This document shows positions 52,094-60,417 of a stretch of DNA of 64,000 bases, piece by piece (the stretch's first letter is position 1; each line of letters starts with the position of its first letter). The notes beneath the pieces were generated by a model. That model did no database searches and was not told the DNA's origin. It saw only the letters and a program-made list of their open reading frames with translations. Position numbers and translations under genes: made by a program. Origin of the DNA: Escherichia coli (GTDB lineage: Bacteria > Pseudomonadota > Gammaproteobacteria > Enterobacterales > Enterobacteriaceae); assembly GCF_016026235.1 (NCBI RefSeq), contig NZ_CP065613.1; one strand, 5' to 3'.

Positions 52094-53242
52094 ATGGCCG
52101 CATTACCATACATGCAACTGTACATAGCTGATTACCTGGCTGACACCATGCATTTGTCAGCAGAGGAGCACGGCGCGTATTTGTTGCTGATGTTCAATTA
52201 CTGGCAAACAGGAAAGCCAATACCCAAAAACAGGTTGGCAAAAATTGCCCGTCTGACTAACGAGCGATGGGTTGATGTTGAACCATCCTTGCGGGAGTTT
52301 TTTTGTGATAACGGCGACGAATGGATGCATCTTCGGATTGAGGAAGATCTGGCATCTGTCAGAGAAAAATTAACCAAAAAATCAGCCGCAGGAAAAGCAT
52401 CTGTTCAGGCCAGAAGAAGCAGAAAGGAAGCAGATGTTCAAACAAAACAAGAGAGAAATTTAACAGGTGTTCAAACAGATGTTGGAGTGATGTTCGAACA
52501 TGATGCCAACACAAAGGCAACTAATAAAGATACAGATAAAGATCTAAAAACAGATCTAACCCATCCCAAACCCTTCCCTTCCGGAAGGGAGTTTCGGGAT
52601 TTTGTGGCTGGAGTGCTTGAGGGGAGATTATCTGGCGGTACTGCAGCGGAATTTTGTAATTCTGCGGTGGTTGCGTTGCAGGCTGCTGGCCTGGATGTCT
52701 GTCGTGAGTATCCGGTGCCAGAGCGTGGTGACGGTTGCGGAGGGCGGATTGATATCGTCGTGACTGACAGGAACGGTGTCCGGTGTGGGATCGAGCTTGA
52801 CCGAAATTCTCCGCGACAGAAATCACTGCTCAAAATCGGTGCTGTTGAAACCGGGATATGTGTCTTGCGGCGCAGTGATATCGCAAGGCACACCGAGCAG
52901 GGAATTCTGGTTATCGGTGGGGCTGTTCGCCAGAAAAAATTTGACCCGTTGTCAGTTGATCTGCCCGACTGGTTGCCAGAAACACTCTGGCATGAGTGGG
53001 TCCAGTTCAGGCAGGCATTGCGAAAACCGATTCGAACGGAGCAGGGCGCTAACGGGGCGATACGGGAACTGGAAAAATTCCGTCAGCAGGGTTTTACACC
53101 TGAGCAGGTGATTCGACACAGCATCGCCAATGAATACCAGGGTCTGTTCGCGCCGAAAGGTGTTCGGCCTGAGACGTTGCTCCGACAGGTTAACACCGTC
53201 TCGTTGCCGGACAGTGCGATCCCGCCAGGCTTCAGGGGGTAA
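52094..53242 (+). CDS. prophage replication protein (YdaU/DUF1376-like)
   Basis: Start at MAALPYMQLYIADYL; precedes the DnaC-like gene. Confidence 0.7.
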   Translation: MAALPYMQLYIADYLADTMHLSAEEHGAYLLLMFNYWQTGKPIPKNRLAKIARLTNERWVDVEPSLREFFCDNGDEWMHLRIEEDLASVREKLTKKSAAGKASVQARRSRKEADVQTKQERNLTGVQTDVGVMFEHDANTKATNKDTDKDLKTDLTHPKPFPSGREFRDFVAGVLEGRLSGGTAAEFCNSAVVALQAAGLDVCREYPVPERGDGCGGRIDIVVTDRNGVRCGIELDRNSPRQKSLLKIGAVETGICVLRRSDIARHTEQGILVIGGAVRQKKFDPLSVDLPDWLPETLWHEWVQFRQALRKPIRTEQGANGAIRELEKFRQQGFTPEQVIRHSIANEYQGLFAPKGVRPETLLRQVNTVSLPDSAIPPGFRG

Positions 53243-53248
53243 CAGACC

Positions 53249-53995
53249 ATGAAAAATATTGCGACAGGAGGCGTTCTGGAGCGTATCCGCAGACTGACCC
53301 CACCACATGTAACCGCCCCATTCAGAACGGTTGCGGAGTGGCGCGAGTGGCAACTTGCTGAAGGCCAGAAACGTTGCGAGGAGATCAACCGCCTGAATCG
53401 TCAGTTGCGGGTGGAAAAAATCCTGAACCGCTCCGGCATCCAGCCGTTGCACCGGAAGTGTTCGTTTGCGAATTACCGGGCGCAGAACGACGGTCAGCGA
53501 CATGCACTGAGTCAGGCGAAATCCATAGCTGACGAACTGATGACAGGCTGTACGAATTTTGTGTTCAGCGGTAAGCCCGGCACCGGAAAAAATCATCTTG
53601 CAGCCGCGATTGGCAACCGGCTGATGGCGAAGGGGCGTAGCGTGATTATCGTCACCGTGTCCGATGTCATGAGCGTGTTGCATGAGAGCTACGACAACGG
53701 CAAATCCGGTGAAAAATTTTTACAGGAGCTTTGTGGTGTTGACCTGCTGGTCCTGGATGAAATTGGCATGCAGCGGGATACGAAAAACGAGCAGGTGGTA
53801 CTGAACCAGATTGTTGATCGCCGGACGGCATCGTTACGCGGTGTGGGGATGCTGACAAATATTAACCATGCAGCGATGAATACACTTCTCGGCGAGCGGG
53901 TGATGGATCGCATGGTCATGAACGGCGGGCGCTGGGTGAATTTTAACTGGGAGAGCTGGCGTCCGAATGTTAGCCATTCGAGGGTTGTTAAGTAG
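53249..53995 (+). CDS. DnaC/IstB-like replication ATPase (YdaV-like)
   Basis: Walker A GKPGTGKNH and Walker B LLVLDEIG. Confidence 0.85.
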   Translation: MKNIATGGVLERIRRLTPPHVTAPFRTVAEWREWQLAEGQKRCEEINRLNRQLRVEKILNRSGIQPLHRKCSFANYRAQNDGQRHALSQAKSIADELMTGCTNFVFSGKPGTGKNHLAAAIGNRLMAKGRSVIIVTVSDVMSVLHESYDNGKSGEKFLQELCGVDLLVLDEIGMQRDTKNEQVVLNQIVDRRTASLRGVGMLTNINHAAMNTLLGERVMDRMVMNGGRWVNFNWESWRPNVSHSRVVK

Positions 53996-54009
53996 TTTCA
54001 GGAGGATTT

Positions 54010-54432
54010 ATGGCGAAACCTTTTACTCCCGAACAGCGGGAAGAACTGAAGACGCGAATTGTGGAACTCGTGCATCAGGACGGTCGGGTCACGATTCGGC
54101 AGTTGTCAGATGAAACAGGTATCAGTCGTGCGTCTGTCGGTCGCTTATGCATGGAACTGGTCGCAAGTGGTGATGTATATAATTCTGGCTACGGGGTATT
54201 TCCCTCTGAACAGGCTCATAAAGACTGGCAAAACGCCCGCAAAAAGCTATCGAGGGTAAAGGTGAAGAAACCGGTTGTGGTTGATCCTGACCTTATCTGG
54301 TCATTACCAGACGGAGAAATACGCCGCTACGACAGGCGCCTGAATATAATCTGTCGCGAGTGCCGGAAGAGCGAAGCTATGCAGCGCGTGCTGGCGTTTT
54401 ATCAGGGGAAATTTCAGGAGGCGGTACTGTGA
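54010..54432 (+). CDS. hypothetical prophage protein with HTH-like segment
   Basis: 140-aa ORF; TIRQLSDETGISRASVGRL resembles an HTH. Confidence 0.5.
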   Translation: MAKPFTPEQREELKTRIVELVHQDGRVTIRQLSDETGISRASVGRLCMELVASGDVYNSGYGVFPSEQAHKDWQNARKKLSRVKVKKPVVVDPDLIWSLPDGEIRRYDRRLNIICRECRKSEAMQRVLAFYQGKFQEAVL

Positions 54433-54475
54433 GTAAAATTAGCTATGAAGTGGTCAACAAAAACTGGCCACCGAG

Positions 54476-55623
<1,148 letters not shown>

Positions 55624-55742
55624 TATGGCACCTGTGTTGTTCTGAGGTGAGCATATCACCTCTGTTCAGGTGGCCAAATTCAGTAAACCACTTCACTATC
55701 AGGCTTCAATTACCGCTGGTATTCGCATCAAAGGAGAGGAGC

Positions 55743-56099
55743 ATGGAAATAAAACCAGAAGATGAGTTAAGCAATATCGTTTTATTTCCGGTAAAAGAGG
55801 ATGACCCACGTAATCAGGTTAATTTTCTTTATGAACCATCGGAAAGACCATATTGCCATCACGCCTCTGTCCGGGTTGACGAAAAAGAGCGTCAGGTCCG
55901 CTGTAAAATCTGCGGTGCGGTTGTGGAGCCGTTTGACTGGATGCTCTCTGTGGCAAAAAGAGAAACCAGACTGGCAGATGATGTAAGGCTATTGCGCCAG
56001 GAGGAACAGGAAAGGCGGAGAAATATAGAAAAGCTGATACAGATTGAGCGTAACGCGAAAGCGCGGATACGCAGGGCGACAAAATCCAGAACTGAATAA
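55743..56099 (+). CDS. hypothetical prophage protein with zinc-ribbon-like Cys/His cluster
   Basis: Start at MEIKPEDE with gagagga RBS; CHH...CKIC then a basic coiled-coil tail. Confidence 0.5.
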   Translation: MEIKPEDELSNIVLFPVKEDDPRNQVNFLYEPSERPYCHHASVRVDEKERQVRCKICGAVVEPFDWMLSVAKRETRLADDVRLLRQEEQERRRNIEKLIQIERNAKARIRRATKSRTE

Positions 56100-56191
56100 T
56101 TAAATTTAGCACTGTTAAAAATTTAATCCTTAACCGGAGGGATTTCTGCACCCTCAAATCATCAGGAGACCGCCCGAAAGGGCGGTAATGA

Positions 56192-56410
56192 ATGGTTACA
56201 TTATTTAGAAAAAAATATCCGCGAAAGAGTAGAACAACAGAATTCCTGTTTCTCATTCTGTTTATCGTGTTGATGACACCGATATCCCCACTAATTTTTG
56301 TCTGGATAATCGGAAAAATAATTGAGCCAGTTATTGAATTGTATAACGACGTGGTATGGGCGTCATTCAACACACTGCACAATAAAATTAATCCGTATAA
56401 GGAAAGCTGA
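56192..56410 (+). CDS. small hydrophobic prophage protein (72 aa)
   Basis: ORF with one strongly hydrophobic segment. Confidence 0.3.
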   Translation: MVTLFRKKYPRKSRTTEFLFLILFIVLMTPISPLIFVWIIGKIIEPVIELYNDVVWASFNTLHNKINPYKES

Positions 56411-56411
56411 T

Positions 56412-56777
56412 ATGGCACTGACGAAAAAACAACGTGCAGAACTGCGCATGAAGTTCGGTGGTCGCTGCGCTTATTGCGGCTGCGAACTTGGCGAAAAGTG
56501 GCATGCAGACCATGTAAAACCGGTCATTCGTTTTGATGGAAATATGCTTCACCAGGAACGTGACGATATATCCAACATGGTACCAGCATGCCACCCATGC
56601 AATCTGCACAAGCATTGCAGTAGCCTGGAAGATTATCGACGAATTATCAGTGATGGTCGTCGTGAATTCCTTGCGTCCGGGAAAGGCAAAGCGCTGGTTC
56701 GTATGGGATTGGTTGAAATGAAATCTGACCCGGTTGTGTTCTGGTTTGAAAAATATCAAGAAGGGGCTACGGCATGA
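56412..56777 (+). CDS. HNH endonuclease
   Basis: CAYCGCEL...HADHVKPV...PACHPCNLHK motif set. Confidence 0.75.
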   Translation: MALTKKQRAELRMKFGGRCAYCGCELGEKWHADHVKPVIRFDGNMLHQERDDISNMVPACHPCNLHKHCSSLEDYRRIISDGRREFLASGKGKALVRMGLVEMKSDPVVFWFEKYQEGATA

Positions 56778-57439
56778 CCACTATTACCAAAGAGCGACTG
56801 CAATGGCTGGCTAACATTTCTGGCCGCGATGATATTGACGATATAGACGGCGGTGAAATTCGTGAACTGGCGCTTATCGCTCTGGCATCACTGGAAGCAG
56901 AGCCTGTAGCGGAATGCATTGTTGAAGATGGGGGCATGTGTATTGACGGGTTCGGTGAGTATGTGGGTCACTCGCTGCCTGATGGAATGCATGAGCTTTA
57001 TGCTGCCCCGCGAATGCGACAACCTGATGGATGGAAAGCCGTAGCTGTAGCGTGGAAGGTGACGTTTACTCAAGTTGACCAGGAATCTAATACGTTCACT
57101 GCTATATATTTTGACAAAGCGGAAGTTGAGCGTTGGGTACGACTGCATAAAGCATGTGATTTTCGGGCAGATATAACACCGCTTTACGCAGCGCCGGCAG
57201 TGCCGGTTGCAGTAAACGACGACATGGCTTACGCATTCCATCACGCACTGTCAGATTCATCGCTTGGCTCTGATGAAATCGAAGAAATTAAAACCGGTTT
57301 GCGTGCTGCCTTTGCCAACGTCACTATCCAACCAGAGCCGATAGTGCCGGATGAAATCGGGCCAAACGATAGTAATACGTTTGATTATGTTGATGGCTGG
57401 AACGCCTGCCGCGCTGCCATGCTTAAGGGAGATAAATAA
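56774..57439 (+). CDS. hypothetical prophage protein (221 aa)
   Basis: ORF with overlapping start/stop to neighbours; no recognised domain. Confidence 0.5.
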   Translation: MTTITKERLQWLANISGRDDIDDIDGGEIRELALIALASLEAEPVAECIVEDGGMCIDGFGEYVGHSLPDGMHELYAAPRMRQPDGWKAVAVAWKVTFTQVDQESNTFTAIYFDKAEVERWVRLHKACDFRADITPLYAAPAVPVAVNDDMAYAFHHALSDSSLGSDEIEEIKTGLRAAFANVTIQPEPIVPDEIGPNDSNTFDYVDGWNACRAAMLKGDK

Positions 57440-57804
57440 TGATTAATCGAACCAAACTGGAGCACATTCTCGAATATGCCAGGCAGCAGAAATGTATTGG
57501 GCAACTTTGTAAAATTCCACCAGGAGATATGGTTGAAATCGTGGAAATGGCCATGCGTAAGGCTGGCAACTCTCCGGTAACTCCGGCTGGCTGGATAAGC
57601 TGTAGTGATGCAGTTCCTGCTGAATATTGCGATGTGATTCTTCTCGATGATCTCGGGAATGTATTCCCCGGTTCCTGGGATAAGGTTTTTTGCCCCACTC
57701 GTGGCGGGAATAAGATGGCTTTTGTGGACAAAGACGGCGTTGAAGTAGAGAGCTCAACTCACTGGATGCCGCTACCGGAACCACCGCAGGAGGTGAATCA
57801 ATGA
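57439..57804 (+). CDS. DUF551-like phage protein
   Basis: C-terminal HWMPLPEPP motif typical of this phage family. Confidence 0.6.
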   Translation: MINRTKLEHILEYARQQKCIGQLCKIPPGDMVEIVEMAMRKAGNSPVTPAGWISCSDAVPAEYCDVILLDDLGNVFPGSWDKVFCPTRGGNKMAFVDKDGVEVESSTHWMPLPEPPQEVNQ

Positions 57805-57884
57805 CCTGGCCTGAGGCATTCACCACGGTAGGAATTGCGATGGCGGTGGCGCTGGTGGTGTATTCGATTTGCCGTTGGGGTTAA
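57801..57884 (+). CDS. 27-aa hydrophobic peptide
   Basis: MTWPEAFTTVGIAMAVALVVYSICRWG, ATGA overlap with upstream gene, terminator follows. Confidence 0.3.
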   Translation: MTWPEAFTTVGIAMAVALVVYSICRWG

Positions 57885-57890
57885 CAAACA

Positions 57891-57920
57891 AAAACCCCGG
57901 ATTGATGGTCCGGGGTTTTT
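57891..57920 (+). terminator. rho-independent terminator
   Basis: aaaaccccggattgatggtccggggttttt. Confidence 0.65.
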
Positions 57921-58258
57921 GAAGGAAACAAAACAGAAACAGCAATTGCCGTTACCTGTTGTTACCATGGCAAGTAAACGTATCTCAGGCGAGCGCATTG
58001 CGCCGTTCTGACGCAGATAAACTAGCCTGGATAGATGGTGCTGGCAATAAAAAATAGCGTTTTCTTATCGGTGTCGGTAAGATTGCTGCGGGTGCTTGAG
58101 GCTGTCTGCCTCGGGCATGTCACTGTAAGGCAGACAGAGAAAAGCCCCAGTTAACATTACGCGTCCTGCAAGACGCTTAACATTAATCTGAGGCCCAATC
58201 TATGTCTCACAAATGTAGGTTAGCCTCTTACGTGCCGAAAGGCAAGGAGAAGCAGGCT

Positions 58259-58414
58259 ATGAAGCAGCAAAAGGCGATGTTAATCGCCCTGATCGTCATC
58301 TGTTTAACCGTCATTGTGACGGCACTGGTAACGAGGAAAGACCTCTGCGAGGTACGAATCCGAACCGGCCAGACGGAGGTCGCTGTCTTCGTAGACTACG
58401 AATCTAGAGAGTAA
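58259..58414 (+). CDS. Hok/Gef-family type I toxin
   Basis: MKQQKAMLIALIVICLTVIVTALVTRKDLCEVRIRTGQTEVAVFVDYESRE; aaggag RBS. Confidence 0.8.
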   Translation: MKQQKAMLIALIVICLTVIVTALVTRKDLCEVRIRTGQTEVAVFVDYESRE

Positions 58415-58692
58415 GAGTGACCAGGCGGGAGAGTAATCTCCCGCCACCTTTGATGTGTCAGGCATCCTCAACGCACCCGCACTTAACCCGTTTCGGCGGT
58501 TTTTTTTGTTGCGTGCTGAATACGCAGGGTGAAAAATAACCATATATTTGATTATATACACAACAAAAAATAAAAGTCATTGTACTTGCACATTAAACAA
58601 TCAAATATACGGCGTGAAATAAATGTTTTTCAGATTAATATTTTTGTCTCTATGTGGATATAACCGTTTGTACTTATAAACCTGGAGGCATC

Positions 58693-58905
58693 GTGGAAAA
58701 AATAAAGAAACTATTTAGTAGCAAATACGCAGTCATACGTCGTGATGACCTGTCAGTTATAGTCGAAATGGATTACTTCCCTGAAACCCCAAAATCAATA
58801 ATGTATCGTAATGGTCGAAAGGCAATTTTTTTACCGATGAGGGTAAGTGACATTATGGGAAATGATAAACTGCTGGATGAATTGCGAGTCAGAGCATCCT
58901 GTTAG
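58693..58905 (+). CDS. hypothetical prophage protein (70 aa from GTG)
   Basis: ctggagg RBS before GTG at 58693; no recognised domain. Confidence 0.35.
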   Translation: MEKIKKLFSSKYAVIRRDDLSVIVEMDYFPETPKSIMYRNGRKAIFLPMRVSDIMGNDKLLDELRVRASC

Positions 58906-58976
58906 TATTGGCATTAATTCTGGTATACTACATAACGGGCTGAACACCCATTCTACTGCGCCAGCGGAGAACTACG

Positions 58977-59576
58977 ATGGCGCATATACAACTGGTCAAA
59001 CAAACCTCTTCCGGATTACTTCTCCCGGCGACGCCGGAGAGTTGCGATTTTTTGCATCAAATCAAAATAGGTGAGTGGATACACGCAGACTTTAAGCGTG
59101 TGCGTAACTACGCATTCCACAAGCGTTTTTTCAAACTCCTGCAACTGGGATTTGATTACTGGACTCCGGTCGGTGGGGCGATCACGCCTCGCGAACGAAA
59201 ACTGGTATCAGGCTTCGTTGATTACCTGTGCGAATCAGTAGGTCGGGAACACACTCCAGCCCTGAGTGATGCCGCAGAGCAATACCTTAATACAGTTGCG
59301 ACATGCAGAACCCGGGATACGGCATTGCTAAAGTCGTTTGACGCTTTCCGCGAGTGGGTAACCATTCAGGCCGGATTTTACACCGAGCATATTTATCCTG
59401 ATGGTAGTCGTGGGCGCAGGGCAAAATCTATCGCATTTGCGAACATGGACGAAACCGAGTTTCAGCAGGTTTATAAATCTGTACTGAATGTGCTGTGGAA
59501 CTGGATCCTGTTCCGTAAATTTTCCTCTCCGGAACAAGTCGAAAATGTGGCCGCGCAGCTACTGGAGTTTGCGTAA
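58977..59576 (+). CDS. hypothetical nin-region prophage protein (199 aa)
   Basis: ORF directly upstream of the YbcO-like gene. Confidence 0.5.
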   Translation: MAHIQLVKQTSSGLLLPATPESCDFLHQIKIGEWIHADFKRVRNYAFHKRFFKLLQLGFDYWTPVGGAITPRERKLVSGFVDYLCESVGREHTPALSDAAEQYLNTVATCRTRDTALLKSFDAFREWVTIQAGFYTEHIYPDGSRGRRAKSIAFANMDETEFQQVYKSVLNVLWNWILFRKFSSPEQVENVAAQLLEFA

Positions 59577-59866
59577 TGGTGGATTTACGTAAAGCGGCGC
59601 GGGGGCAGATGTGCACCGTCAGAATTCCTGGCTACTGCAATCACGATCCGGAAACGTCTGTGCTGGCGCATTACCGACTGGCGGGAACGTGCGGAACAGC
59701 GACAAAACCACACGATATGCAGGCGGCGATTGCCTGTAGCTCATGCCACGATTTAATCGACGGGCGGGTAAAAACAAGCGATTACACCAAAGAAGAATTA
59801 CGCCTGATACATGCAGAAGGTGTTTTTCGCACGCAAGAAATCTGGAGAAAGGAAGGTTATTTATGA
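59576..59866 (+). CDS. YbcO-like protein (DUF1364, putative nuclease)
   Basis: Cys-rich 96-aa ORF resembling DLP12 YbcO. Confidence 0.7.
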   Translation: MVDLRKAARGQMCTVRIPGYCNHDPETSVLAHYRLAGTCGTATKPHDMQAAIACSSCHDLIDGRVKTSDYTKEELRLIHAEGVFRTQEIWRKEGYL

Positions 59867-60417
59867 TTTACCCAACAAATACAGGCAAAAGCGGGGAACA
59901 CCTTCGTCTCACCACGCTGGAAAGTGTCTGGATTCAGGGAAAACTGCGCATGTGGGGGCGCTGGTCGTATATTGGCGGCGGTAAGACGGGGAATATGTTC
60001 AACCAGTTGTTGGCCTCTAAAAAGCTGACAAAAACGGCAATTAACGAGGCGCTCCGGAGGATGAAAAAAGCAGGTCTGGACAAACCTGAACTTGAGGCTT
60101 TTTTGCGGGATATGATCAACGGCAAGCAAAAAAGCTGGCTGGTGCATTGTACTGACGCAGAGGCGTTATGCATTGATCGGGTGATTAGTGAAGTGCTGGC
60201 AGAACACCCAGGATTGATTTGTATCCTCCGGCAACGATATGAAGGGAGTGGGATGACTAAGCGAAAAATGGCTGAATTGCTGAATGATTCACACCCTGAG
60301 TGGTGTTATCGGACGTGTTGCAGTCGGGTTGATGTATGGCTAAATCTTGCTGAATATATGCTCTATCTACCGATGCGTGATGCATTCTCTTCCGGGGATC
60401 TAAAAACCGTCTGTTGA
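59863..60417 (+). CDS. candidate late-gene antiterminator (Q-like by position)
   Basis: 185-aa ORF whose stop overlaps the -35 of a strong promoter followed by a terminator. Confidence 0.45.
   Translation: MIYPTNTGKSGEHLRLTTLESVWIQGKLRMWGRWSYIGGGKTGNMFNQLLASKKLTKTAINEALRRMKKAGLDKPELEAFLRDMINGKQKSWLVHCTDAEALCIDRVISEVLAEHPGLICILRQRYEGSGMTKRKMAELLNDSHPEWCYRTCCSRVDVWLNLAEYMLYLPMRDAFSSGDLKTVC

Follow-up and report, generated by a model that had tools for sequence, protein, structure and literature searches.

The six small genes at positions 55743-57884 of the window, as the whole analysed stretch of 64,000 nucleotides of Escherichia coli DNA is called here, very probably constitute an ordinary, already known mosaic set of accessory early genes of lambda-like E. 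coli and Shigella prophages and not a dedicated nuclease system. The hypervariable array fills the slot between the YdaU/YdaV/DUF977 genes and hok/sok plus the nin/Q module, and its members are six independent cassettes from the pool that Stx phages carry in the early-left exo-xis ('ea') region. The cassettes are exchanged where one gene meets the next, the 3' end of the first supplying the ribosome-binding site of the gene behind it. The bacterium carrying the prophage is probably Shigella or an enteroinvasive E. coli. The region comprises the following features.

53249-53995, plus strand: YdaV/DnaC-like ATPase of the replication module (Pfam IstB_IS21, 1.2e-18)
54010-54432, plus strand: DUF977 winged-helix protein of the replication module (Pfam, 6.5e-34)
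54446-55695, minus strand: IS911-like element of the IS3 family, 1250 bp, with orfA/orfB on the minus strand
55743-56099, plus strand: ORF1, 118 aa, CHCC zinc ribbon with a long basic C-terminal helix (phrog_1621, 3e-56)
56164-56191, plus strand: translation-initiation region of ORF2, with the Shine-Dalgarno (SD) sequence AGGAG at 56164-56168 and a hairpin at 56169-56186, then the ATG
56192-56410, plus strand: ORF2, 72 aa, DUF4014, single-pass membrane protein (PF13198, 1.3e-25; phrog_1832, 1.5e-44)
56412-56777, plus strand: ORF3, 121 aa, predicted nuclease of the HNH (beta-beta-alpha-metal) type (PF01844, 2.2e-6; phrog_2118, 8.8e-57)
56774-57439, plus strand: ORF4, 221 aa, modular Ea22-type protein of about five short blocks with piecewise PHROG matches
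57439-57804, plus strand: ORF5, 121 aa, DUF551-domain protein (PF04448, 3.4e-19; phrog_924, 4.5e-44)
57801-57884, plus strand: ORF6, 27 aa, single-helix membrane peptide and last gene of the array, MTWPEAFTTVGIAMAVALVVYSICRWG
57889-57921, no strand assigned: intrinsic terminator hairpin of 16 bp (13 pairs as reported by the scan), which closes the array
58090-58414, plus strand: hok/sok toxin-antitoxin locus directly downstream of the array (sok 58090-58264, Hok CDS 58259-58414)

All six ORFs named in the initial annotation were present on the plus strand and had been placed correctly, with the IS911-like element on one side and the strong hairpin terminator on the other. Their identities had also been given correctly (a zinc-ribbon-like protein, a hydrophobic protein of 72 aa, an HNH protein, a 221-aa unknown, a DUF551 protein and a hydrophobic peptide of 27 aa). 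The tight packing described there applies to ORF2 through ORF6 and not to ORF1, which lies 92 nt apart from ORF2. The stop/start overlaps were found in the sequence as ATGA (4 nt) between ORF3 and ORF4, TAATG (1 nt) between ORF4 and ORF5, and again ATGA between ORF5 and ORF6; ORF2 and ORF3 are separated by a gap of 1 nt (TGAtATG). Ribosomes would be able to pass from ORF2 through to ORF6, and the products would act separately, not as one machine. When the ORFs were searched for domains, DUF4014, HNH and DUF551 all exceeded the Pfam cut-offs. ORF1 to ORF5 each matched a PHROG family (1e-21 to 1e-57), and identical copies of the proteins occurred on public contigs numbering from hundreds to over 1000. 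Chance ORFs were ruled out by the family matches, conservation and pN/pS, and none of the antisense ORFs of 100-199 aa had a match in Pfam.

The best E. coli match was VL40, a prophage at ttcA with the gene order ydaS/T/U, DnaC-like, DUF977, array, hok, DUF1367/DUF1364/DUF1133, lysis genes and Nu1/gpA terminase. The replication-gene region at 53249-54432 is collinear with VL40 and with ydaU/ydaV of K-12 Rac. As judged from sequence, the element that carries the array belongs to the Rac family of lambdoid prophages and sits at ttcA, with the array flanked by the replication genes of the prophage and by hok/sok. The sok RNA was identified with Rfam RF01794 (118 bits, E = 2.6e-27), and Hok/Gef is annotated by PGAP in VL40. 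In a scan of 53000-60000 with Rfam, sok was the only match and no retron ncRNA was found.

The element upstream of ORF1 agrees with the pattern of IS911 (about 1250 bp, orfA/orfB with a frameshift, 3-bp target duplication) and is 94% identical to an element that PGAP names IS911-family. Its terminal repeats start TGAAGTGG, and it is flanked by the 3-bp target duplication CTA (54443-54445, 55696-55698). The insertion is intergenic, starting 14 nt past the DUF977 stop codon and ending 47 nt before the ATG of ORF1. The empty site ...AATTAGCTATCAGGC... was found in locus L050, and the identical occupied site in locus L026. Truncation or deletion of genes by the element was rejected, given that the insertion is simple, has a target duplication and has an empty counterpart elsewhere. 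This lineage never had the DUF4406 and Ea22-like genes that VL40 carries.

No sigma-70-like site was found on the plus strand in 54000-59000 in a scan for sigma-70 consensus sites. Lacking its own promoter-like site, the array would be read as part of the early-right operon, with transcription stopping at the terminator at 57889-57921. This hairpin has a dG of -23 kcal/mol (z = -5.0), and none of 200 shuffles folded as well; with an A-tract on the 5' side and a U-tract on the 3' side it is bidirectional in form. IS911, 47 nt upstream of ORF1, would cut the array off from the early-right promoter, and because of this separation the array is probably poorly expressed in the IS911-bearing copy.

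The distribution of the genes was compared across genomes. Of 5426 complete E. coli genomes, 2508 contain some part of the 2.25 kb but just one contains at least 80% of it. The locus samples were the best 80 matches of 458 and of 280; they are biased to close relatives, and the counts are descriptive only. Among the best 80 HNH loci, 54 were fully flanked and had 25 different arrangements. DUF4014 stood directly upstream of the HNH gene, with the 1-nt spacer, in about 70% of these best matches (56 of 79 loci). Seen from DUF4014, again in the best-80 sample, the next gene was the HNH gene in 35 of 78 loci and another gene in 43; the slot was also filled by 87-aa, 95-aa and modular genes. Each cassette junction lies exactly at the ATG, behind an SD/stop sequence that hardly varies, and identity drops abruptly once the HNH stop codon is reached. 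Of the best 80 HNH loci, 58 had YdaV/DUF977 upstream and/or hok downstream, and 5 adjoin int/xis or DUF2303. A related Rac-like prophage carries entirely different genes between DUF977 and hokD.

In the phages ArgO145 and 933W these genes are found with the recombination genes on one side and int on the other. ArgO145 gp17, gp12 and gp11 are homologues of the set ORF1, DUF4014 and HNH gene, and an unannotated ORF6 is also present. In 933W, L0067 (DUF4014) and an ORF6 homologue adjoin an Ea22-like gene, and in BP-4795 an ORF6 homologue follows a DUF551 gene. The early-left and early-right operons draw on one common ea gene pool. The region exemplifies the known accessory mosaicism of lambdoid phages, with exchange at gene boundaries and the ribosome-binding site travelling with the preceding gene, and it matters little for new biology.

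Two known regions resemble the array. The nin region of lambda occupies the same position, with the replication genes on one side and Q on the other. HNH homologues in prophages of Yersinia and Klebsiella adjoin NinB, YbcO, RusA, NinE and NinG, and ORF3 has the His-Me finger core in common with NinG. None of the six proteins, however, belongs to a characterised Nin family. The initial annotation had named a match of all six to characterised nin proteins as the result that would contradict it; the count was 0 of 6, Pfam and NCBIfam showed no Nin family above cut-off, and tblastn of the six against K-12 Rac, DLP12 and Qin gave nothing under E = 0.1. The exo-xis region of lambda and Stx phages (Ea22, Ea8.5, orf60a/61/63; Ead/Ea22-like and DUF551 variants) draws on the same gene families as the array; homologues occur in the early-left region of reference phages, as expected of members of the lambdoid ea/exo-xis accessory pool. 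ArgO145 carries homologues of ORF1, DUF4014, HNH and ORF6, and 933W of DUF4014 and ORF6, in both cases among Ea22-like genes, and the genes are likewise small, overlapping, early and mosaic. The modular Ea22/DUF551 architecture found in the array proteins has been described (PMC10834534). The array differs from the exo-xis region in its place, which is behind the replication genes in the early-right operon instead of between exo and xis, and this copy is without a canonical Ea22 (PF13935) gene.

ORF3 was the gene for which the initial annotation had considered a possible homing, packaging or defence role, as an HNH nuclease with small partners. Its PF01844 score was 28.2 bits against a gathering cut-off of 21.4, and its motifs are intact, with CxxC...CxxC zinc ligands and a DH...N...N catalytic motif. 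Across 24 diverse homologues, C19, C22, H31, D33, H34, N55, C60, C63, N64 and K67 did not vary. The Pfam assignment is limited to residues 19-68, the HNH core, and the C-terminal half matches no known DNA-binding family. The nearest solved structure in a profile search of the PDB was 4H9D, for the core only (E = 1e-4); a PDB search with the single sequence found nothing. ORF3 would be an HNH nuclease that depends on zinc and makes nicks or cuts in DNA during the early phase of lytic growth, and its role would most likely be accessory, in phage recombination/replication or against competing DNA. The proposed roles for an HNH protein with small partners were not supported: the genes are independently reshuffled cassettes, and the DUF4014-HNH adjacency is frequent, not obligatory, and is missing around diverged HNH homologues. 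A search of the literature joining the exo-xis region and HNH found only unrelated phage-genome papers.

A more specific function is rather unlikely, namely that ORF3 is an accessory structure-specific nuclease for recombination or replication intermediates, like lambda NinG/Rap or T4 endonuclease VII. The gene neighbourhoods are suggestive: a 74%-identical HNH homologue in Yersinia lies between NinB and YbcO/RusA, a homologue in Klebsiella lies upstream of NinE/NinG, and one in Comamonas lies in a region with RdgC. However, the homologues co-occur with NinG and RusA and do not replace them. The core of ORF3 has a weak similarity to NinG (18.2 bits in Pfam; 28% over 54 aa in BLASTP, E = 2e-4), and phrog_1035 'endonuclease VII' matches ORF3 at 2.8e-12. 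Nevertheless, the score for NinG (PF05766) is below the cut-off of 25.4 and covers only profile positions 93-147 of 193, the flanks of the NinG core are absent, and the similarity is confined to the common His-Me finger core.

It is improbable that the HNH gene is a selfish homing-like cassette, which would cut HNH-less phage genomes near the junction of DUF4014 and the next gene and be copied during repair. Free-standing phage HNH homing endonucleases include the T4 Mob proteins and I-HmuI. The HNH gene would resemble these in being intergenic, cassette-like and present or absent between related phages. The polymorphism is precise from ATG to ATG: HNH-less loci read ...GCTGAtATGACCACTATTACC, with the junction sequence ...GCTGATATGACCACTATTACC..., and in the window the stretch between TGAt and ATGACC is exactly the 362 nt that start with the HNH ATG. 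The gene occurs in both early operons and follows different genes. Moreover, the HNH gene and the last ~90 nt of DUF4014 are near-identical where the 5' part of DUF4014 is only 80-87% identical, which resembles a co-conversion tract. Yet the 3' boundary is abrupt and not graded, and the non-nuclease neighbours are equally mobile and behave as cassettes too. The slot after DUF4014 takes the 87-aa, 95-aa and modular genes, which points to replacement and not insertion. At 121 aa, ORF3 is also much smaller than the phage homing endonucleases, and the region outside its core, with the C-terminal half, matches no known DNA-binding family.

A module of DUF4014 and the HNH gene, possibly with ORF1, that serves in prophage defence, exclusion or toxin immunity is very improbable. 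DUF4014 and the HNH gene are adjacent in most of the best-80 loci (56 of 79) and share a ribosome-binding site, lambda carries ren in the slot after the replication genes, and the PADLOC PtuB models match the HNH core (best 3.2e-8). But another gene follows DUF4014 in 43 of 78 loci of the best-80 sample, and diverged HNH homologues are without a DUF4014 neighbour. The likeness to the HNH effectors of Septu (PtuB) and retrons is confined to the core, which matches the PtuB models and, weakly, TIGR02646, and it stays below cut-off (TIGR02646, 21.8 vs 52.15); the IscB score was likewise too low (23.8 vs 175). ORF3 has about half the length of PtuB, and no PtuA-type ATPase or retron partner is present at the locus. 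PADLOC gave no match for the other five proteins, and a defence system was rejected on the restriction of the PADLOC matches to the HNH core.

The reading of the HNH protein as a packaging cofactor of the prophage terminase, like HK97 gp74, is effectively refuted: both are small stand-alone phage HNH proteins of similar size (121 vs 119 aa), and the nearest solved relative, 4H9D, is a small stand-alone HNH nuclease, but BLASTP gave no alignment to gp74 at E <= 100, and every locus examined has the HNH gene in an early operon. In VL40, the closest relative, some 8 kb separate it from the terminase genes, and the VL40 terminase is of the lambda type, with Nu1 and a gpA that has its own GpA_nuclease domain, then gpW. 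The suggested pairing of the HNH gene with a terminase was checked in VL40; the window stops before the terminase. An HNH gene in the early region of a prophage should not, by itself, be taken as a homing, packaging or defence element.

The other genes of the mosaic accessory set were analysed individually. ORF1 starts at an ATG with the Shine-Dalgarno sequence AAAGGAGAGGAGC, and M1 was invariant across homologues. C38, H40, C54 and C57 were invariant in 44 homologues from Enterobacterales, and the basic C-terminal helix was highly conserved. In the AF2 model (pLDDT 77), residues 43-54 form a beta-hairpin and residues 63-117 a helix. Because the score against Zn_Ribbon_TF (PF08271) was 21.5 bits, under the Pfam cut-off of 29, ORF1 is placed outside the TFIIB-type family and regarded as a generic zinc ribbon only. 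Foldseek with the model was uninformative, the best matches being TFIIB-type ribbons, all at E > 0.27. ORF1 would be a zinc-ribbon/coiled-coil protein, and ORF2 and ORF6 are predicted to be small membrane proteins.

ORF2 matched DUF4014 with 90 bits (cut-off 23.2) over profile positions 1-71 of 72. The protein has a basic N-terminus and one hydrophobic helix at residues 19-37 (Kyte-Doolittle mean 2.68). The hairpin between its SD and ATG has 7 bp and a GAAA tetraloop, and the fold of 56095-56215 had a z of -3.1. The order SD-hairpin-ATG recurs upstream of most DUF4014 genes inspected, behind at least 3 different upstream genes; stem changes were single, and no compensatory changes were seen. 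A boxB/nut-like site is disfavoured for this hairpin, which has a GAAA tetraloop and not the boxB pentaloop, and its position between SD and AUG fits translation initiation better. The 3' end of ORF2 holds the SD for whatever gene comes next, and the end junction ...TATAAGGAAAGCTGAtATG is nearly invariant ahead of several alternative downstream genes. No mention of DUF4014 was found in the literature. The adjacency of DUF4014 and the HNH gene in about 70% of the best-80 HNH loci could mean a functional pair and not common descent, which counts against the main view.

ORF4 had no match in Pfam. Its piecewise PHROG matches were to phrog_60, 3323, 660, 17148, 12449 and 5117, and many of its 3284 relatives share just 35-40% of the length at 80-90% identity. 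The block structure was visible in the alignment, and the blocks recombine elsewhere with DUF551 or Ead/Ea22 domains. The AF2 model was of poor confidence (pLDDT 48.6), too low for a fold search. The DUF551 match of ORF5 (residues 51-117) had 69.9 bits against a cut-off of 22, and a PDB search with DUF551 found nothing. By analogy with lambda Ea22 and YfdS (PMC10834534, PMC4776307), ORF4 and ORF5 might modulate the lysis-lysogeny decision or host stress physiology.

The sole mildly new point concerns ORF6, a conserved membrane peptide gene omitted by standard RefSeq annotation. The gene was without annotation in the six RefSeq records inspected, while some GenBank records list it as 'bacteriophage protein'; no paper was found with the peptide string. 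The DNA was present in 1296 of 5426 E. coli genomes. The best 80 loci contained 55 copies, in which substitutions were mainly synonymous and at the third codon position, and pN/pS was 0.27 in frame compared with 0.81 and 1.85 in the other frames. ORF6 is, on these values, conserved and under purifying selection. Within the best 80 loci it occurred in at least 4 upstream and at least 4 downstream contexts, each with a GGAGG-type SD, and the same terminator followed 23 of the 55 copies. In the window the SD of ORF6 lies inside the C-terminal codons of ORF5 (...PQEVNQ), and the tail PEPPQEVNQ is common to otherwise unrelated genes upstream of ORF6.

It is somewhat favoured that ORF6 stands for a family of membrane peptides, each with 27 aa, a single helix and the motif M-x-W-P-E-A-F...Y-S-x-x-R-W, and that this family is systematically absent from RefSeq annotation. 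Such peptides would close lambdoid 'ea' arrays, often directly upstream of hok/sok, in about one quarter of the complete E. coli genomes, with 933W-type Stx phages among the carriers, and would have a translation coupled to the preceding gene and a selectable membrane function. An unannotated gene of 27 codons beside hok/sok in RefSeq records of E. coli, Shigella and Stx phages is a candidate for small-protein catalogues. The order ORF6 then hok was also found in 933W, AVS0096 and F6667.

The six plus-strand ORFs of the initial annotation were all present at 55743-57884, and the IS911 element and strong terminator described on either side of them were both found. The features were as follows.

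54446-55695, IS911-like element, 1250 bp, terminal repeats beginning TGAAGTGG
55743-56099, + strand, ORF1, 118 aa, zinc-ribbon protein
56192-56410, + strand, ORF2, 72 aa, DUF4014
56412-56777, + strand, ORF3, 121 aa, HNH
56774-57439, + strand, ORF4, 221 aa, modular Ea22-type
57439-57804, + strand, ORF5, 121 aa, DUF551
57801-57884, + strand, ORF6, 27 aa, membrane peptide
57889-57921, terminator hairpin, -23 kcal/mol, z = -5.0
58090-58264, sok, Rfam match, 118 bits
58259-58414, Hok CDS, 51 aa

The tight packing and start/stop overlaps held for ORF2 to ORF6, with junctions TGAtATG (ORF2/3, a 1-nt gap), ATGA (ORF3/4), TAATG (ORF4/5) and ATGA (ORF5/6), and did not extend to ORF1, which lies 92 nt from ORF2. 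Antisense ORFs across the array had no family matches, and an Rfam search around it gave nothing besides sok. Since a promoter scan of 54000-59000 returned no plus-strand sigma-70-like site, we infer that array expression relies on read-through out of the early-right operon. The Shine-Dalgarno sequence of ORF2 is separated from its AUG by a 7-bp hairpin with a GAAA tetraloop (56164-56194). Most of the inspected DUF4014 loci share this layout, with several different genes preceding DUF4014. Variation in the stem was limited to single changes and gave no covariation support. The arrangement resembles that of T4 gene 38, whose ribosome-binding site is split.

The prophage in the window, located at ttcA, belongs to the Rac family of lambdoid elements. 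Its best complete E. coli relative, VL40 (97.5% identity across 83% of 24 kb), has the order intR, recE, ydaS/T/U, DnaC-like ATPase, DUF977 and the array, followed by hok, DUF1367/DUF1364/DUF1133, tRNAs, lysis genes and Nu1/gpA/gpW packaging genes. Most named records of the exact array proteins were those of Shigella sonnei and S. flexneri, and relatives are rich in IS600, IS911 and IS2, so that a Shigella or enteroinvasive E. coli origin is probable. An apparently complete hok/sok-type toxin-antitoxin locus (58090-58414) lies directly 3' of the terminator and matches the K-12 Qin hokD region at 92% DNA identity.

The IS911-like element shares 94% identity with an IS911-family copy annotated by PGAP and sits in the DUF977-ORF1 spacer, 47 nt upstream of the ORF1 ATG, with a CTA target duplication on both sides (54443-55698 inclusive). 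The IMG/VR locus L050 carries the uninterrupted empty site ...AATTAGCTATCAGGC... with one CTA only, and five IS-free loci aligned collinearly over the DUF977-hok interval (98-99% identity); the element therefore truncated nothing, and gene truncation was ruled out in favor of a simple insertion. Another locus, L026, was 100% identical to the window, IS included. The insertion probably lowers array expression.

Above the Pfam cut-off, DUF4014 (ORF2), HNH (ORF3) and DUF551 (ORF5) were matched; the zinc-ribbon match of ORF1 was sub-threshold, and ORF4 had no Pfam match. All five larger proteins fell into PHROGs phage families (phrog_1621, 1832, 2118, 60 and 924). The ORF1 family spans Enterobacterales, with C38, H40, C54 and C57 invariant and the C-terminal helix almost invariant; in its AF2 model (pLDDT 77) a small zinc ribbon leads into a 55-residue helix, and Foldseek returned only TFIIB-type ribbons, none significant. 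In VL40 (L001 11418-12387) an Ead/Ea22-like gene overlaps the start of ORF1 by 23 nt, and Ea22-like/ORF1 fusions of 202 aa occur among database proteins (P0077), possibly as frameshift or annotation variants. ORF2 is a membrane protein with one helix. ORF4, whose AF2 model was unreliable, is pieced together from about five short blocks, which in 3284 relatives are reshuffled among themselves and with DUF551 or Ead/Ea22 domains. DUF551 is described as a portable module at the C-terminus of Ea22 variants and of YfdS (PMC10834534, PMC4776307).

At least 80% of the 2.25-kb region was present in only one of 5426 complete E. coli genomes, some part of it in 2508, and the HNH gene alone in 702. The surroundings were compared in loci anchored on the HNH gene or on DUF4014, taken as the best 80 of 458 and of 280 matches, samples skewed to close relatives whose counts are descriptive. 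Among these best matches, 54 fully flanked HNH loci showed 25 arrangements, DUF4014 lay directly upstream of the HNH gene in 56 of 79, and DUF4014 was followed by HNH in 35 loci and by another gene in 43. The alternatives were genes of 87 aa or 95 aa, the latter as in 933W L0066, or directly a modular MTTIT... gene. The junction after DUF4014 was always at the ATG following ...TATAAGGAAAGCTGA(t/a); identity to other loci dropped abruptly at the HNH stop codon and, on the 5' side, fell off within DUF4014. In Klebsiella, diverged HNH homologues follow replication genes and precede a DUF551 gene and NinE/NinG/Q; in Yersinia they are flanked by NinB on one side and YbcO/RusA on the other, and in Comamonas xis/int are close by. 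DUF4014 was next to none of them. In phages ArgO145 and 933W the array's gene families sit instead in the early-left exo-xis region. The six genes thus do not form one system. The array follows the classical lambdoid mosaic pattern of exchange at gene boundaries, reportedly established by Hendrix, Juhala, Clark and colleagues.

The alternative genes after DUF4014 open with similar codons (MALTKKQRA..., MATLTKKERA..., MATLQEL...; compare window 56412-56440), and such short common sequences at gene starts suggest possible recombination joints. In the related Rac-like prophage of E. coli VL7S7 (L174 18164-20120), unrelated genes, a TRM11-family methyltransferase and one hypothetical, occupy the DUF977-to-hokD slot, which is thus a general cargo site.

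Homing, packaging or defense had been raised as possible roles of the HNH protein and its partners. Every HNH catalytic and zinc residue is conserved in ORF3; its closest solved relative, 4H9D, is alike in the core only. A NinG-like recombination nuclease is a possible but weak reading, as likeness to NinG does not extend beyond the core and both NinG and RusA are found alongside the gene. A homing-like element would fit the exact presence/absence polymorphism of the gene but is unlikely, because non-nuclease neighbors behave identically and ORF3 matches no known DNA-binding family beyond the HNH core. Defense was unsupported: matches were confined to the HNH core, below cut-off, and no partner gene was at the locus. 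Packaging was ruled out, as this is an early-region gene without similarity to HK97 gp74 and the terminase of VL40 (the window stops short of its own) is of the lambda type and has a nuclease domain itself.

None of the six had homologues in K-12 Rac, DLP12 or Qin, which share only ydaT/U/V, hok and lysis genes with this prophage; identity with characterized nin proteins was therefore not the explanation. The array is ordinary for another reason, consisting of widespread, already-catalogued domain-of-unknown-function cassettes. The initial observation was confirmed and its interpretation supported in part; mosaic accessory arrays of this kind are already known.

Its newest defensible point is the 27-aa ORF6 family, conserved yet routinely unannotated. 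Among the 80 best-matching HNH loci there were 55 copies, with changes mostly synonymous at third codon positions; pN/pS was 0.27 in frame versus 0.81 and 1.85 out of frame. At least four different genes precede ORF6, each giving a GGAGG Shine-Dalgarno sequence, and at least four different sequences follow it; it usually lies just 5' of hok/sok. Diverged homologues occur in 933W (MTWPEAFANVGTVMAVVLVVYSICRWR, L162 2501-2581) and BP-4795 (MNWPEAFTAVGVAIAVAFILYSLFRWG, L163 2501-2581), and further copies in loci L175 and L176 (about 1501-1584). Of the 5426 complete E. coli genomes, 1296 carry ORF6 DNA. Annotation was absent from all six RefSeq records inspected, and some GenBank records have it entered.

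Otherwise unrelated genes upstream of ORF6 end in ...PEPPQEVNQ or ...MNQ (here 57780-57804), because their last codons are the ORF6 ribosome-binding site CAGGAGGTGAATCA. Conservation of these protein tails is imposed by the translation signal of the next gene.
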